Shown: in pieces, positions 7,336 through 19,068 of the stretch
How positions within the stretch are numbered: the first letter of the stretch is position 1
Layout of the letters: every line of letters begins with the position of its first letter
NCBI GenBank assembly: GCA_039193455.1
Contig: JBCCWO010000012.1
Location: 5,311-69,310 of the forward strand
Direction: 5' to 3'
DNA length: 64,000 bases
Source of the DNA: Pseudomonadota bacterium
Lineage (GTDB): Bacteria > Pseudomonadota > Alphaproteobacteria > Rhodobacterales > Rhodobacteraceae
Translations under genes and position numbers: made by a program
The notes under the pieces: generated by a model
Database searches by the model: none
What the model saw: the letters and a program-made list of their open reading frames with translations, nothing else
Told to the model about the DNA's origin: nothing

Positions 7336-7681
7336 TAGCACCGTACGCTGGGGCTACCGTCCGCTAACCAAGCCCGCCTAAAACCCCCAACCGAAGCTTC
7401 CTGGCGCGGGATGGGGCGACACCCCGACCACGCCTGACCCTTGGACGCCGGCCTCTGACCCGAGGCTGTCCGCCCAGGCCGCCGCATCCGGAGACGGGTG
7501 CACCAGGACATCGGGGGACACCCCGTCGGCGCTGCCAACCCTTGGCGGGCCCGTCATTTGGAAAGACAGCGATATGCACCACGACCCGGGCCGCCAGAGA
7601 GGCAGCGCCGGGCGGGGGTGCGTGAAGATGGGGCGACGGCCATGCGGGTTGGGTTCGGAGCGATCCTTGCCTTACCGCCCA

Positions 7682-8386
7682 TCACGATGCGGACGCCCGA
7701 CTGACAACATCTGCGATGATGGACGTGGTCTCCGATGGCTTTGCAAGCGGGGTGTAGTGACCGCACTCGTCGATCACGTGGAGTTGTGCTGAAGGGGCCA
7801 ACGCGGTGAGCCGTCGCGCATAGGCCAGCCCCGGGAACGCGTCCAACGCACCAGACACGACATGGATCGGACTGGTACTGGTTTCCACAACGTCTTCACG
7901 ACTTGCCCGGGTGTGAAACGCCGCAACGCCGTTCATCAGGTCCTTTGGCGATTGTTCCATCGCGATCGCTCGGCACCGTTCCCGAGCGGCCGTGTGGTTT
8001 GGCAGTTCAAAAAGCGGCTCCCAAAACCGTTCCCAAGCTGCGGCAACGCCCTGTGTCTCAATCGTTTTCAACGCTTCGGTGGCACTCTCTGGTTCAGGAT
8101 CGTGCCGGGCCTTGGTGCCGATGAGAACGGATGCCGCGACACGCTCTGGCGCGAGCCTGAGAATTTCAAGCGCGCACGACCCGCCCACAGAGCACCCGAC
8201 CACCACAAGCCGCTTCGCCGGGACATGTTTCAGGCACTGCTCGGCCCATTGCTGGAGGTTATCGCCGAGTTTGTAGAGATCGGGCGCGTAGGTCCGCTCT
8301 GGCAAGAGCGCGCGCTGGCTTTCCCACATCCGGCCATCCAGTGGCAGCGCATGGAGAAGAAGAAGCCCAAGGTCGGAACGCGTCAT
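7682..8386 (-). CDS. Alpha/beta hydrolase
   Basis: Nucleophile elbow GCSVGG and C-terminal DECGHY. Start taken at internal ATG 8386. The ORF is open to 8458, which lies 29 nt from the tRNA. Confidence 0.7.
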   Translation of the reverse strand: MTRSDLGLLLLHALPLDGRMWESQRALLPERTYAPDLYKLGDNLQQWAEQCLKHVPAKRLVVVGCSVGGSCALEILRLAPERVAASVLIGTKARHDPEPESATEALKTIETQGVAAAWERFWEPLFELPNHTAARERCRAIAMEQSPKDLMNGVAAFHTRASREDVVETSTSPIHVVSGALDAFPGLAYARRLTALAPSAQLHVIDECGHYTPLAKPSETTSIIADVVSRASAS

Positions 8387-8486
8387 TTCCCAACCGTAAC
8401 AGTCGCCGCCCCAACTGTCCGCGCTGTTCCCGCAGGCACTTAGGAGCCAGCGAAACAAAGGCCCGTTCGACCCATTGGATGAAAAG

Positions 8487-8562
<76 letters not shown>

Positions 8563-8597
8563 AACGGCGCGGGTTGTGGGCCACGGGCTGGGTGCTG

Positions 8598-9287
8598 TCA
8601 AGCGGTGGGGCGGCGGGCGATGAGCGCGGTATGGGCGTGCAGGCTGCGCCAGGGGCCCGGGCCAAAGGGGTGTAGCGCCGCGCGCAGCGCCGCCTCCATG
8701 GGCGCGCGCCGGTCGCCCAGCTTTTCGGCCGTGCTGCCGGAACGCGACAGGACATATCCCAGAAACGCGGCGAAGCTCCATGTGTGCCAGCACAGCACAG
8801 AGATCTCGACAAGGTCCGAGAAGGGCGAGGCGAGCAAGACCTCTTCATGCGCGGCATAGGCGTCGGAATAGCGGTGCGTGGCACAGGCATCCATCACCGA
8901 AAACTCCCGCGCGACGGCGTTGGCGGCCCGGTACCAGGCATTGGCGCCGGTGTCGCGCACCTTGTCGCCAAGGAGTGCAACAGCCCCACCGGGTTCTGTG
9001 ATCGTGTCGAGCGCGCCCAGCGTCGCGGCCCGGTCCATCCAGTGAAACGACCGCCCCATGGTCGTCAAACGCACCGGAGCGGGGACGATGGACAGATCGT
9101 ATGAACTTCCCACCAGATAGGTGGCGTTCACTGGCGCCTCGACCCGTGCGGCGGCGACCATCGCGTCGCTCGGATCGACGCCGACCACCTGGCCGACGCG
9201 ATCCGCGACGGCGTTGCCAATGAACCCCGGACCGCAGCCGAGATCGAGCAGCGTTGCCTCAGCGCCTGTTCCCGTCTCGTCCAGCAT
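8598..9287 (-). CDS. Class I SAM-dependent methyltransferase
   Basis: Motif I LLDLGCGPGF. The frame stays open and protein-like upstream to 9383 with no canonical start (see finding). Confidence 0.8.
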   Translation of the reverse strand: MLDETGTGAEATLLDLGCGPGFIGNAVADRVGQVVGVDPSDAMVAAARVEAPVNATYLVGSSYDLSIVPAPVRLTTMGRSFHWMDRAATLGALDTITEPGGAVALLGDKVRDTGANAWYRAANAVAREFSVMDACATHRYSDAYAAHEEVLLASPFSDLVEISVLCWHTWSFAAFLGYVLSRSGSTAEKLGDRRAPMEAALRAALHPFGPGPWRSLHAHTALIARRPTA

Positions 9288-9469
9288 CCGCGTCAGAAGA
9301 TGTGGCGCATAGCGCAGGCGGTGAGCGATGTAGCGGTCGACGGCGCTGTCGAACCGGTCGGGCAGGTAGGGGGCGACGGTTATGGCGGGGTCCTTTCGGG
9401 GCCCAGCCTAGCCGCGGCGTGTCAGAGTTCTGTGACGCGCTTGTCGGTGTCCGGGCCAAGGGTTCGCGC

Positions 9470-9934
9470 CTACTCGGTCGCCGCAAGACAGCCAGACCGC
9501 TCCATCCGCCCATCGCGCATCCGCACCCCGCAGATCCACGCCGGGGCCAGGGTGGCATCGTCGACCACGGGCGAGAAGCGGTCGGTATGGATGAACACCT
9601 GATCCAACCGCGCGCCCTCCAGAATGGTGTCGGTCAGGTCGACATAGATCATCGAGGTATAGCGCAGATCGGCGAAGGAGAGGTTGGTGCGGGTCAGGTT
9701 GGCGCCCTGGAACTCGGCGTTTCTAAGATCCGCGCCTGAGAGATCGGCGCCCGTCAGATCCGAGGATGACAGATCCGCGCCCGCCAACTGCGCCCCCGCC
9801 AGCCGGGCGCCCGTGAGATTGCAGTCGAAACAGGTGCCCGTGTCGAGAAGCCGCGCCACATGGGCCGGGTCGGCGGCCTGGGCGGGCGCGCCAACAGCCA
9901 GCACTGCGACCAATATGCCTGAGCGCAGACGCAT
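9470..9934 (-). CDS. Secreted pentapeptide-repeat protein
   Basis: Signal peptide MRLRSGILVAVLAVGAPAQA, then A(D/N)LxG-type pentapeptide repeats. AAGGAG lies 7 nt before ATG 9934. Confidence 0.8.
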   Translation of the reverse strand: MRLRSGILVAVLAVGAPAQAADPAHVARLLDTGTCFDCNLTGARLAGAQLAGADLSSSDLTGADLSGADLRNAEFQGANLTRTNLSFADLRYTSMIYVDLTDTILEGARLDQVFIHTDRFSPVVDDATLAPAWICGVRMRDGRMERSGCLAATE

Positions 9935-9986
9935 GCTTGCACTCCTTACAATCACTCAGACCCTTAGCACGAACCGGGCGCCGGCG

Positions 9987-11582
9987 CTACGCGCCAGCGG
10001 GTTCAGCGCCCTTTTGGGTCATCGAGATATGGGCCTCCGGGTCTGGGTTGGGGCAATTGCGGGCCAAGAGCGTACCAAGGCTCGCCGGTTTCTTAAGCAG
10101 GGCCCAGCCCACATCCCCGAAGGTGGCGCGCTTGTAAACATGTTCCGACAGGAGCGGGTTGGTGAGCGCCTGGGTGAAGGCATCAAGCGCCACCATCGTG
10201 CGGATCAGCTCGGGCAGCGGGCTGTTGGGGCTCAGGTCTTCGGCGAAGAGACCCACAAAGAACTCCACGTCGCGCGGGCTGTCGTACAGCCCGGCCAACA
10301 GATCCTGCACCTCGCGATCCGCGGAGATGTCGGCAAAGGTTGAGGGCGCGGACAGCCCCACATAGCGGCGATAGGCGGCATAGGTGTCGAGCTTGGCCAG
10401 GCGGCCCTGATCGATCGAATTGCCCTCGATATGCAAGAGCGCCTCGGGCGTGTTGAACGGGCCCAGACGGCCCGAAGCTTGCGCGCTCATATCCGCGAAC
10501 GCGCCCGCCAGCCCCCGTGCGGTCAAGAGCGCGTTGTTGTGAAACGTCTCATGCACCGGCAGGGTCTGGCTGCCCCAACGGATCGTGGCGGGCACCAGCG
10601 CGTGCCAGCGGTAGAGCAGGCTGAACTCGGTGGTGATCCACACCTCGCGGTTCCATTTCTTGTTCCAGGCGACCGATGGGTCGGCGCGGAACTGAAACGG
10701 GGTGGCGCCGATATGGGTGATGTATTCCTCGATCACGATCTTGATGAAGAGGACGATCATCACGTTGCGGGTGGTCTGGAACACACGCTCGTCATCCCAG
10801 TCGGGTTCGCTGTCGCAGATCAGGGCGGCCACGCGGTTGTGTTCGCGCAGCAAGAGCGTGTTGATCATCACCACCTGCGGGGCCGTGTTCACGCGGTCGC
10901 CGCCCACGGCAAAAAGCTGGGCCTGATGGTCGGGCGGGACGGTGTTGGGGTCAAAGAGCGGCGGGTCCAGGTCACCGAAGGTATCGGCGTCGTAATAGGG
11001 CGAATACTCTTCGCCATTGATATCTTGCGACAAAAGCCGCCCGCGCTGACCCGGCGTATCATCCAGCGCCCGCAAGGCCCGGGCCTGCAGATCGTTGCGG
11101 CCATAGAGCGTGCAGAGATCGATGTTGTGGGTCGAAGTATTGCGCAGGTTCTGCGCCGTGGTGCGGTCAAGCGGGTTGGGGTGCAGTACGCCGCTGCGGA
11201 TGAACCCGTCGGTGAGGTATTGCGCAAAGGCCGGGAACAGGCAGGTGGAATAGGGGCTGAGCCGCTGCTGCCCGTCCTTCTGGCGGAACAGATCGAGGAG
11301 CCGATCGATGTCGGGGTGTGCGACATCGTCTGCCTCGGGCAGGTGGCGCGCGGAATAGGTCTTGTCGGTCAGCGACGTCCAACTGGTATAGGGATGCACC
11401 GTGCTCCACGGATGGGGCCGGTTGCGCGCAACGCTGGCGGCGCGGTGGACGATCAGCCGGTTGAACAAGGCGCCAAGCGTCTCGGACCGGCTGACAAAGG
11501 AAATCAGGGAAGCGATGAAGGGGTGCATGGGAAAATCCGTGATCCAAACCGAATGGCTCGAAGGATACGCGATCTCCGCCAT
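9987..11582 (-). CDS. Cyclooxygenase-like haem peroxidase (animal haem peroxidase superfamily)
   Basis: LLLREHNRV, KIVIEEYITHI, LLYRWHALVP and THNIDLCTLYG parallel COX motifs WLREHNRV, KIVIEEYVQQL, LYHWHPLMP and GHGVDLGHIYG (by-eye recall). Confidence 0.8.
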   Translation of the reverse strand: MAEIAYPSSHSVWITDFPMHPFIASLISFVSRSETLGALFNRLIVHRAASVARNRPHPWSTVHPYTSWTSLTDKTYSARHLPEADDVAHPDIDRLLDLFRQKDGQQRLSPYSTCLFPAFAQYLTDGFIRSGVLHPNPLDRTTAQNLRNTSTHNIDLCTLYGRNDLQARALRALDDTPGQRGRLLSQDINGEEYSPYYDADTFGDLDPPLFDPNTVPPDHQAQLFAVGGDRVNTAPQVVMINTLLLREHNRVAALICDSEPDWDDERVFQTTRNVMIVLFIKIVIEEYITHIGATPFQFRADPSVAWNKKWNREVWITTEFSLLYRWHALVPATIRWGSQTLPVHETFHNNALLTARGLAGAFADMSAQASGRLGPFNTPEALLHIEGNSIDQGRLAKLDTYAAYRRYVGLSAPSTFADISADREVQDLLAGLYDSPRDVEFFVGLFAEDLSPNSPLPELIRTMVALDAFTQALTNPLLSEHVYKRATFGDVGWALLKKPASLGTLLARNCPNPDPEAHISMTQKGAEPAGA

Positions 11583-11602
11583 GCTCCAAAGGTGGAAATC
11601 CC

Positions 11603-14473
11603 CTACTCTGCCGCGTCCAGATACTCCTCTAGCGGCGGACAGGTGCAGACGAGGTGCCGGTCGCCATAGACATTGTCGACCCGGTTGACCGGCGGCCAGT
11701 ACTTATCCACCCGGAACGCCCCCGCAGGATAGCACCCCACTTCGCGGGAATAGGGCCGGTCCCAGTCGCCCACCAGATCCTCGACCGTATGAGGCGCGCG
11801 TTTCAGCGGGTTGTTTTCGGCATCCACCTCACCCGCTTCGATCTGGCGGATCTCTTCGCGGATGGCGAGCATCGCGTCGCAGAACCGGTCCAGCTCGGCC
11901 TTGGTCTCGCTCTCGGTCGGCTCGACCATCAGGGTCCCGGCGATGGGCCAGCTCATGGTGGGCGCGTGAAACCCGTTATCGATCAGGCGCTTGGCGATAT
12001 CGTCAACGGTCGCACCCGCCTCGGCGAAGGGCCGGGTGTCGAGGATACATTCATGCGCAATCCAGCCCGCCTTGCCGGTGAACAGGATGTCATAGGCCCC
12101 CTCCAGCCGCTTGGCGATGTAGTTGGCGTTCAGGATCGCGACCCGCGTCGCCTGGGTCAGCCCCTCACCGCCCATCATGAGCACATAGGCCCAGGAGATC
12201 GGCAGGATCGAGGCCGAGCCAAAGGGCGCCGCCGCCACCGGCCCCTCGCGCCCACCGGTTTCGGGATGGCCGGGCAGGAACGGGGCGAGGTGATGCTTCA
12301 CACCGATGGGCCCCATGCCCGGGCCGCCGCCGCCGTGGGGGATGCAGAAGGTCTTGTGCAGGTTCAGGTGGCTCACATCGGCGCCGATCTCACCCGGTTT
12401 GACAAGCCCCACCAGCGCGTTGAGGTTCGCGCCATCCAGATAGACCTGCCCCCCATTGGCATGGGTGATCGCGCAGACCTCGCGCACGGTTTCCTCGAAC
12501 ACGCCATGGGTCGAGGGATAGGTGATCATGCAGGCGGCCAGATTGTCGCCTGCCGCCGCCGCCTTGGCCCGGAAATCCAGCAGATCGATGTCGCCATTGG
12601 CCGCCGACTGGACCACGACCACCTCCATCCCGGCCATCTGGGCCGAGGCCGGGTTGGTTCCATGGGCAGACACCGGGATCAGGCAGATATTGCGATGCCC
12701 TTCCCCCCGCGCGCGGTGATAGGCCGCGATGGTCAGAAGCCCCGCATATTCGCCCTGCGCGCCCGAATTCGGCTGCATCGACATCGCGTCATAGCCGGTG
12801 ATCTCACACAGCTTCGCCTCAAGATCGGCGATCATCTCGTGATACCCCGCCACCTGATCGGCAGGCGCAAAGGGATGCAGGTTCGCAAAATCCGGCCAGG
12901 TGATCGGCATCATCTCGGCCGCGGAGTTGAGCTTCATCGTGCAGGACCCCAGCGGGATCATCGCGCGATCCAGCGCCAGATCCCGGTCGGCGAGCCGACG
13001 CATATAGCGCATCATCTCGGTCTCGGCGCGGTTGTGGTGAAAGGTCGGGTGGGTGAGGTAGTCGGTGTCCCGCACCAGCCCCTCGGGCACGCGGTGGTAG
13101 TCGGCGGGAAAGTCATCGCGGCTGTGGCTGAGGCCAAAGGCCCGCCAGACCCCTTCCAAGACGGCGGGGCGGATCGTCTCATCCACCGTGATGCCAATCT
13201 TCGTCTCGCCCACCTTACGAAAGTTGATCCGCTCGCGCCGCCCGGCCTCGAGGATCACACCCTGCAGTGATCCGACCTCGACCGTTAAGGTGTCAAAGAA
13301 GTGTTCCGGCTCAATGGTATAACCACCGGCCTCCAGCCCGCGGGCCAGCCGGTCGGTCTTGCGATGGATGCGTTGCGCAATCGCCTTCAGCCCCTTCGGC
13401 CCGTGGAACACCGCATAAAACGACGCCATCACCGCCAGCAACGCCTGCGCGGTACACACGTTCGATGTCGCCTTTTCGCGGCGGATATGTTGTTCGCGCG
13501 TTTGCAGCGACAGCCGGTAGGCCTTGTTGCCCCGCGCATCCACCGACACGCCGACCAGCCGCCCGGGCAGCGCGCGCTTATAGGCATCGCGGCAGGCCAT
13601 ATAGGCGGCATGGGGCCCGCCAAAGCCCAGGGGCACGCCAAAGCGCTGGGTCGAGCCCACGGCGATATCGGCGCCCATCGCGCCCGGTTCCTTCAGGAGC
13701 GTCAGCATCAGCGGATCGGCAATCACGATCCCGATGGCCTTCGCCGCATGTAGCGCCGCAATCTCATCGGTGAAATCGCGCAGATGCCCGTAGGTCCCCG
13801 GATACTGGAAGATCGCGCCGAACACCGCCCCTGGCTCCAGGTCCTCTGGCGCGCCCACGATCACCTCGATCCCAAGCGGCGCCGCGCGGGTCTGCATCAC
13901 CTCGATGTTTTGTGGATGGCAGTTCTCATCGACAAAGAACGCGGTGGCTTTCGACTTCGCCACCCGCTGCGCCATGGTCATCGCCTCGGCCGCCGCCGTC
14001 GACTCGTCGAGAAGCGAGGCATTGGCCACCTCCAGCCCGGTCAGATCGCTCACCATCGTCTGGTAGTTGAGCAAGGCCTCAAGCCGCCCCTGGCTGATCT
14101 CGGGCTGATAGGGCGTGTAGGCGGTGTACCATGCCGGGTTCTCAAGGATATTGCGCTGGATCGCCGGCGGCGTGACCGTGCCGTGATAGCCCTGCCCGAT
14201 CATGGTGGTGAAGATGGTGTTCTTCTGCGCCACCTGCCGCATCCGCCAGATCAGTTCCCGCTCGGACAGGGGTTTGCCGAAATCAAGCGGGGTCTCTTGC
14301 CGGATATCTGCGGGGATCGTCTGGTCAATCAGCTGGTCCAGACCATCGACGCCGATCACCTTGAACATCTCGGCCATCTCTTCGGGCGAGGGCCCGATAT
14401 GGCGACGATTGGCAAAGTCGTAAGGCAGGTAATCGGTCGGCTCGAATGCCATCTCAGCTCTCCTCAGGGGCAC
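11603..14473 (-). CDS. gcvP: Glycine dehydrogenase (decarboxylating), P protein
   Basis: 956 aa single-chain P protein in a gcvT-gcvH-gcvP context. Confidence 0.95.
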
Positions 14474-18886: not shown

Positions 18887-18897
18887 TGTCGATGCCC

Positions 18898-18988
18898 GCG
18901 ACGGTCCCTGGGCCTGAGAGTTTACCGGGGCGGTTGCTCCTTCGGCATCGGGTCCCAAACAGATCGGGCGCCCGAATTCTCCCGTCGC
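18898..18988 (-). promoter_or_regulatory. Glycine riboswitch aptamer I (complete)
   Basis: Minus strand: P1 GCGACGG...CCGTCGC, GGGAGAA, UCGGGC/GCCCGA hairpin, UGCCGAAGGAGCAA, CUCUCAGGCCCAGGGAC. Confidence 0.8.
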
Positions 18989-19068
18989 TGACCCTTTCTC
19001 GTTACTGCCAAACCGCGCGCCCGACAAGGGGTTGCGTTGCACGGCGCGGGCCACCACAGAGGGGACCC

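Follow-up and report, generated by a model that had tools for sequence, protein, structure and literature searches.

A cyclooxygenase-like gene next to gcvP in a Rhodobacteraceae genome probably encodes a stand-alone haem fatty-acid dioxygenase of a widespread bacterial family

Why does a bacterial gene for a protein resembling the animal cyclooxygenases (COX; prostaglandin G/H synthases, PGHS) lie directly behind gcvP, the glycine dehydrogenase gene of the glycine cleavage operon, and what does its product do? The question is raised by a 64,000-nucleotide stretch of DNA from a member of the Rhodobacteraceae (GenBank assembly GCA_039193455.1, contig JBCCWO010000012.1, positions 5,311 to 69,310), here called the window, to which all positions refer unless another locus is named. 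A sequence-only reading had singled out the gene, described its product as a haem oxygenase lacking the distal histidine, and remarked on its odd pairing with glycine cleavage. We propose that the protein is a stand-alone, probably membrane-associated haem b fatty-acid dioxygenase (DOX) with a COX fold, belonging to the peroxidase-cyclooxygenase superfamily's bacterial branch, and put the probability of this reading at roughly 0.7. Its likeliest function would be that of a tyrosyl-radical haem dioxygenase making a fatty-acid hydroperoxide. Two forms of the gene have to be distinguished:

9987..11582, minus strand: long open reading frame (ORF) of the COX-like gene, 531 amino acids, with its ATG at 11582
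9987..11528, minus strand: putative coding sequence of the COX-like haem fatty-acid dioxygenase, 513 amino acids from Met19; matches to PF03098, to PGHS-1/2 and, through an AlphaFold2 model, in Foldseek

The ORF list contains the 531-residue frame as the earlier reading gave it, complete and on the minus strand. Residue numbers below follow this form, and the codon coordinates were verified. The profile search that had been suggested as a check was run, and PF03098 (An_peroxidase) matched with 147.2 bits (E 8e-43) against a cut-off of 25; its gathering score is exceeded, which places the protein in the peroxidase-cyclooxygenase superfamily. None of the NCBIfam models matches it. When the protein was compared with PDB sequences by phmmer, PGHS-1 and PGHS-2 came out on top (E 4.8e-50 for PGHS-1), with residues 54-510 of the query spanning residues 125-572 of ovine COX-1; by the residue map, the two are 33% identical over 434 positions. 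The HMMER alignment to ovine COX-1 reproduces all six of the motif likenesses that had been pointed out. In the order window protein/ovine COX-1, these are FAQYLTDGF/FAQHFTHQF, THNIDLCTLYG/GHGVDLGHIYG, LLLREHNRVAAL/WLREHNRVCDL, KIVIEEYITHIGA/KIVIEEYVQQLSG, EFSLLYRWHALVP/EFNQLYHWHPLMP and DVEFFVGLFAED/ALEFYPGLLLEK, and the matches lie far above chance.

The predicted structure agrees with this placement. An AlphaFold2 model built from an input alignment of 117 sequences has a predicted local distance difference test score (pLDDT) of 91.6 and a predicted template modelling score (pTM) of 0.93. Foldseek comparison with the PDB finds the fold nearest to COX-1/2, with template modelling (TM) scores of 0.85-0.88, root-mean-square deviations of 2.3-3.0 A and 26-29% identity. 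Plant alpha-dioxygenase (alpha-DOX) follows at TM 0.70 with 14-16% identity, lactoperoxidase and myeloperoxidase at 0.65-0.70, and a cyanobacterial peroxidase and Dictyostelium peroxidase A at 0.66-0.69. The earlier reading had also stated that the protein lacks both the EGF domain and the membrane-binding domain of COX. The EGF domain is indeed absent, and the four-helix membrane-binding domain of COX proper is not found either; however, the model begins with two N-terminal helices, the first of them moderately amphipathic (hydrophobic moment 0.51), and the match of the family profile to COX-1 sets in at about residue 96, a position that we take to lie inside the later helices of the membrane-binding domain. 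This domain therefore appears truncated and does not look wholly absent, its tail being partly retained in the model.

The residues at the putative active site are listed below with the positions of their codons.

11208..11210, minus strand: Asp125 codon, at the position of the COX distal His207 (alignment, residue map)
10893..10895, minus strand: Arg230 codon, aligned with COX-1 Val291, a residue of the distal haem face (alignment, residue map)
11220..11222, minus strand: Gln121 codon, equivalent to COX Gln203 on the distal face (residue map)
10602..10613, minus strand: Y324-R325-W326-H327, equivalent to COX Tyr385-His386-Trp387-His388, which include the radical Tyr and the proximal haem His (alignment)
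10170..10193, minus strand: V464...A468...Q471 within VALDAFTQA, equivalent to COX Gly526, Ser530 and Gly533 (residue map)

The earlier statements that the radical tyrosine and the proximal histidine are present, and that the distal histidine seems to be an aspartate, both held in the alignment, in which Y324 falls on Tyr385, H327 on His388 and D125 on His207. Also in common with COX-1 and COX-2, its nearest solved structures, the protein has the equivalents of Gln203 (Q121), Tyr348 (Y287), Phe381 (F320), Leu384 (L323) and Trp387 (W326). It differs from them at His207 (D125), Val291 (R230), His386 (R325), Tyr355 (T294), Gly526 (V464), Ser530 (A468), Gly533 (Q471) and Tyr504 (F442). A terminal substrate-site motif of the form I/V-G/A-x-D-A-F-x-Q-A is found as V464-A-L-D-A-F-T-Q-A472.

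These residues suggest how the enzyme might work. His327 would ligate the haem, and a peroxide or hydroperoxide would oxidise it on a distal face formed by Gln121, Asp125 and Arg230, which would replace the Gln/His of COX. The oxidised haem would then generate a radical on Tyr324. An unsaturated fatty acid would lose an allylic hydrogen to this tyrosyl radical, and addition of O2 would yield the fatty-acid hydroperoxide.

Should the protein then be called a prostaglandin G/H synthase, forming endoperoxides like PGG2/PGH2? COX-1/2 are its top solved matches, and many of its homologues carry such a name from the Joint Genome Institute (JGI). Among the replaced positions are Tyr355 (now Thr), Gly526 (Val), Ser530 (Ala) and Gly533 (Gln), which we take to be needed in COX for arachidonate binding and cyclisation; their loss argues that the protein is not a prostaglandin endoperoxide synthase, and neither endoperoxide formation nor aspirin-type acetylation is to be expected from such a site. 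His207 is replaced as well, the EGF domain is absent, and we know of no production of C20 polyunsaturated acids in such hosts. The characterised bacterial relative described below yields a simple 10S-hydroperoxide (PMC13049297). We regard a true prostaglandin synthase as scarcely credible here.

An alpha-dioxygenase, which would oxygenate fatty acids at C2 and give chain-shortened aldehydes, shares the superfamily and the tyrosyl-radical dioxygenase chemistry that we predict for the window protein. Bacterial alpha-DOXs exist, and their distal His is only partly conserved (PMC8720084). The plant and cyanobacterial enzymes are nevertheless far less similar to the window protein, at TM 0.70 and about 15% identity against 0.87 and 26-29% for COX, and the family profile matches alpha-DOX over no more than the C-terminal part, with E 1e-20 as compared with 4e-71 for COX-2. 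This assignment is quite improbable.

How particular is the distal aspartate to this protein? A word-indexed search returned over 2,100 homologues with lengths around 520 amino acids, whose names are 'heme peroxidase' or 'peroxidase family protein', or 'prostaglandin-endoperoxide synthase 2' where JGI named them, and the 120 matches listed were aligned with the query. Across these 121 sequences D125, Q121, Y324 and H327 are invariant; Y287, the equivalent of Tyr348, is invariant in the family alignments, and R230 in two of them (A1 and A4). An exhaustive search of representatives at 50% identity found 3,533 proteins at E<=1e-3, 262 of them at E<=1e-30, in Alpha-, Beta- and Gammaproteobacteria, Acidobacteriota, Chloroflexia, Acidimicrobiales, Planctomycetota and others. 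Of 80 diverse representatives in which the distal motif could be recognised, 79 carry Asp there and one carries Glu. The distal Asp, usually accompanied by Arg at the Val291 position, is thus a near-universal signature of a very large bacterial radiation (262 clusters at E<=1e-30). It had been suggested that the aspartate argues for dioxygenase over peroxidase chemistry. The dioxygenase remains the best reading, but its chemistry cannot be deduced from the Asp as a peculiarity of this protein, since the residue is the family-wide state. The distal His is present in plant alpha-DOX and in fungal 8R-DOX, both of them dioxygenases, so that His versus Asp alone cannot separate the two chemistries.

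In a FastTree phylogeny with ovine COX-1 as the outgroup on a long branch, the window protein appears to lie inside a subfamily with the motif 'YLTDGF', apart from a larger 'WFTDSF' group. The 'YLTDGF' subfamily is widespread, occurring in roseobacters, methylotrophs, nitrifiers and Acidobacteriota. Closer to home the distribution is sparse: among 41 relatives a full-length homologue is found in the window's genome only and in neither of two same-genus genomes, and the profile search detected no second PF03098 gene in this genome and none in 14 control genomes.

To our knowledge, the linoleate 10S-dioxygenase (10S-DOX) of Nostoc punctiforme is the sole characterised member of the bacterial branch, and no experimentally characterised proteobacterial or 'YLTDGF' member was found in the literature. 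Bacterial relatives of cyclooxygenase were long known as putative sequences only (PMC4420034). The Nostoc enzyme (UniProt B2J5P4, 542 amino acids; Brash et al. 2014), as described in a 2026 review in the Journal of Biological Chemistry (PMC13049297), forms 10S-hydroperoxides from oleate and linoleate and acts together with a catalase-related hydroperoxide lyase, which is a separate protein. It has F143-T-D-S-F at the position of COX F205-T-H-Q-F, Phe at Tyr504, retained Tyr348, Tyr385 and His388, helices alpha-B to alpha-D like those of the membrane-binding domain, and the terminal motif I483-G-x-D-A487-F-x-Q490-A (Table 2 of that review); a 'unique and conserved Arg' is stated for DOXs at the Val291 position (PMC13049297). 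The window protein shares each of these features: both have a stand-alone COX fold of about 520-540 residues without an EGF domain, a distal Asp, Arg at Val291, Phe at Tyr504, the DAFxQA motif and the three retained COX residues, and in both the N-terminal helices correspond by homology to the later ones of the membrane-binding domain of COX. The pairing of the Nostoc enzyme with a catalase-related protein also recurs among members of the window's subfamily, in some of them as a fusion. By its published description the Nostoc enzyme would be of a different subfamily, with the motif F-T-D-S-F (FAQYLTDGF in the window protein), and the 'WFTDSF' proteins form a separate clade from the window's subfamily. 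It also has a catalase-related partner, which the window's genome lacks. The exact fingerprint of the Nostoc enzyme was not found among 150 representatives.

The fungal linoleate diol synthases, or DOX-CYP fusions of a dioxygenase with a cytochrome P450 (8R-, 9- and 10R-DOX), offer a second comparison. They too have a COX-related haem dioxygenase domain, a radical Tyr and Arg at the Val291 position, and P450 fusions occur among the bacterial relatives of the window protein. They differ in keeping the distal His, in their length of about 1,050-1,170 amino acids with the P450 domain, and in another membrane-binding region (PMC13049297), whereas the window protein is a single domain.

Genes and domains joined to the family in other bacteria point to the product. 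A Pfam scan of 20 long representatives found a fusion to a catalase-related domain in one (P0153), to a patatin-like phospholipase in one (P0161) and to cytochrome P450 in six, N-terminally in P0166 and P0167 and C-terminally in P0198, P0205, P0228 and P0259; together with the Methylorubrum fusion described below, these relatives are 43-53% identical to the window protein. Several further relatives of 700-1,300 amino acids have extensions without a Pfam match. Within the window's subfamily, a catalase-related gene lies directly upstream on the same strand at 6 of 80 loci (L037, L070, L074, L081, L082 and L083); the gap, at those loci where it could be measured, is 3-100 bp. At another locus (L085) the copy is on the opposite strand and lies further upstream, and one more (L024) gives a partial match only. 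Pfam confirmed PF00199 in the partners at L070, L082 and L083; the partner at L037 has no Pfam match and is 34% identical (tblastn) to the catalase-related domain of P0153. In Methylorubrum rhodesianum DSM 5687 (L083:6834-9476), an N-terminal catalase-related domain (PF00199) and a COX-like domain 53% identical to the window protein form one ORF of 881 amino acids; as the organism is a cultured type strain, this fusion lends itself to experiments. The nearest solved relative of the catalase-related partner is a small protein labelled uncharacterised (3e4w), the catalase-related haemoprotein of Mycobacterium avium on which the Brash and Newcomer groups have worked. The catalase-related partner is a frequent accessory and not a universal one. 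A phospholipase to release fatty acids, a dioxygenase, and catalase-related or P450 enzymes to transform the hydroperoxide make up the scheme known from the eicosanoid, fungal DOX-CYP and Nostoc pathways, which supports a role in forming fatty-acid hydroperoxides.

Several points weigh against the dioxygenase assignment. The role of the window protein and of its 'YLTDGF' subfamily would follow from comparison, and identity to representatives of the 'WFTDSF' type, the motif type of the Nostoc enzyme, is only about 40%. The fatty acids made by alphaproteobacteria of this kind are mainly monounsaturated. No partner of the kinds seen in the fusions (catalase-related, P450 or patatin) is encoded in the window or its genome. 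Moreover, DyP-type peroxidases cleave peroxide with a distal Asp/Arg pair, which brings in another possible function: the protein could act mainly as a peroxidase or lipid-hydroperoxide reductase that detoxifies peroxides, with Asp125 and Arg230 providing the acid-base catalysis by which the O-O bond is cleaved heterolytically. The strict conservation of both residues, the membership in a peroxidase superfamily and the absence of a hydroperoxide-consuming partner from this genome would fit such a role, and little is known about the peroxidase activity of DOXs (PMC13049297). Against it, the equivalents of Tyr385 and Tyr348 and the helices of the COX-like substrate channel are strictly conserved too, and the nearest characterised enzyme sharing the distal face is a dioxygenase (PMC13049297). 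That relatives are fused to, or share operons with, catalase-related, P450 and patatin partners likewise implies a fatty-acid hydroperoxide as product. A primarily peroxidatic function therefore seems unlikely, though less so than the two alternatives considered above, and we prefer the haem fatty-acid dioxygenase.

The remaining part of the question concerns the position of the gene, and here the start codon matters.

11603..14452, minus strand: gcvP (glycine dehydrogenase, 949 amino acids), the upstream neighbour; PF02347 and PF21478, with the 949-residue form present in the sequence collection
11529..11602, minus strand: intergenic region between gcvP and the COX-like gene, 74 nt from Met19, with an imperfect hairpin without a U-tract

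The longest ORF of gcvP covers 11603-14473, with its TAG stop codon at 11603-11605. The true start of the COX-like gene is most likely Met19 (ATG at 11526-11528), giving a predicted product of 513 amino acids, because the first 18 residues of the 531-residue form are conserved in no homologue of the alignment, the exact 513-residue sequence from Met19 is present in a public NCBI-derived collection, and the upstream ATG is replaced by GTG in a relative that is 95% identical (L096). The same collection holds no match to the 531-residue form of the window's own sequence; one ENA cluster member is 531 amino acids long. In a relative that is 82% identical (L095) the gene is called at the equivalent of Met19, and the Met19 ATG is kept in all three sequences (window, L096 and L095). 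The spacing of 20 bp after the gcvP stop that had been given is accordingly right for the ATG at 11582 (20 nt), and becomes 74 nt from the likely start.

The statement that no terminator separates the two genes was upheld by a site scan of the spacer, which found nothing terminator-like; the scan found no promoter-like site between them either, and co-transcription with gcvP is plausible. The spacer can fold into a hairpin of -40.1 kcal/mol (z -2.2; 6 of 200 shuffles were equally good) that joins the upstream ATG to the Met19 ATG, its ends being CAUGGG...CCCAUG. As these ends span the Met19 ATG, the start codon would be sequestered. The 82%-identical relative (L095, about 95-165) has, by eye, a shorter hairpin with identical CAUGGG...CCCAUG ends and another inner stem. 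The hairpin may be a translational element, an mRNA-stability element or a remnant of an insertion junction.

Does the adjacency to gcvP mean that the protein serves glycine cleavage? A genuine member of the gcvTHP operon might act on a lipoyl, N-acyl-glycine or one-carbon-related substrate, and the shared strand, the gap of 20-74 nt, the lack of a terminator-like site and the adjacency kept in two metagenomic relatives, at 95% and 82% nucleotide identity, would all accord with this. Comparison across the family speaks otherwise. At 0 of 80 other loci does gcvP lie near the homologue, and neither gcvP, gcvH nor gcvT was found there except for one distant gcvT-like match. No neighbour is conserved across the 80 loci, with any Pfam family reaching at most 5 of 142 flanking genes; the top ORF clusters at the loci were ruled out as conserved neighbours, being shadow ORFs of the gene itself. 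In the two same-genus genomes (G001 and G002), the methyltransferase gene stands next behind gcvP, whose protein is 94-96% identical, at a distance of about 200 bp. What is missing there is a defined segment containing two genes:

9439..11602, no strand: segment of about 2.2 kb with the COX-like and pentapeptide genes, an indel absent from G001 and G002 (blastn)
9470..9934, minus strand: pentapeptide-repeat protein, 154 amino acids (PF00805, E 2e-23), with an AAGGAG Shine-Dalgarno sequence; part of the inserted segment

The remark on an odd pairing was thus correct as to adjacency. As to function, the absence of gcvP from all 80 loci and of the gene from this site in the congeners indicates that the pairing carries no meaning. 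Synteny largely refutes membership in the glycine cleavage pathway, which we consider hardly probable at all; the adjacency is a local, lineage-specific accident, and any read-through from gcvTHP would be incidental.

With a dN/dS (ratio of nonsynonymous to synonymous substitution rates) of 0.10-0.17, the COX-like gene is under purifying selection and maintained. The synonymous divergence (dS) between the window and the 82%-identical relative is 0.72, and that of gcvP to the congeners is about 0.6; G+C content at third codon positions (GC3) is 0.829 in the COX-like gene, like that of its neighbours. The similar dS, matching GC3 and low dN/dS indicate that the arrangement is old within part of the genus and that the gene is selected. 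Recent horizontal acquisition was considered and is unsupported, given the host-like GC3 and the comparable dS values, and no hallmarks of mobile elements were seen.

The genes that follow were correctly described as encoding a pentapeptide-repeat protein and a methyltransferase, the latter of class I. The pentapeptide-repeat protein has a signal-peptide-like N-terminus, MRLRSGILVAVLAVGAPAQA. Such a gene lies near the COX-like homologue at only 1 of the 80 loci; it follows the COX-like gene in the 95%-identical relative and is absent from the 82%-identical one, where DUF2161 and NUDIX genes stand downstream. In the methyltransferase region (8608-9438), homology to the congeners reaches about 9438 and so extends upstream past the first canonical start (9287). 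Further on, the alpha/beta-hydrolase gene (7682-8458) has a GC3 of 0.67 against about 0.8 in its neighbours, and the stretch 7621-8607, which comprises this gene and a tRNA (8490-8562), is replaced in G001 by about 4.4 kb of other sequence, marking a variable spot. On the other side, the glycine riboswitch aptamer of the gcv operon (RF00504) lies at 18892-18994 on the minus strand, about 2.7 kb upstream of gcvT. The segment 16134-18838 is missing from both same-genus genomes, in which the riboswitch region abuts gcvT.

Nothing in the window is categorically new: the protein joins a widespread proteobacterial subfamily of the known COX-like branch, and the supposed link to glycine cleavage is removed as a false lead. 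A tentative extension, which we hold with low confidence, is that the 'YLTDGF' subfamily oxygenates the monounsaturated fatty acids of its hosts (e.g., cis-vaccenate) or a non-classical lipid by means of a peroxide-activating Gln/Asp/Arg distal face. If this were true, the Gln/Asp/Arg face would be a device undescribed in the COX fold, and the product a bacterial oxylipin with a signalling or ecological role. The distal Asp signature, the selection acting on the proteobacterial subfamily and the repeated catalase-related, P450 and patatin partners make the family tractable for finding bacterial oxylipin pathways.

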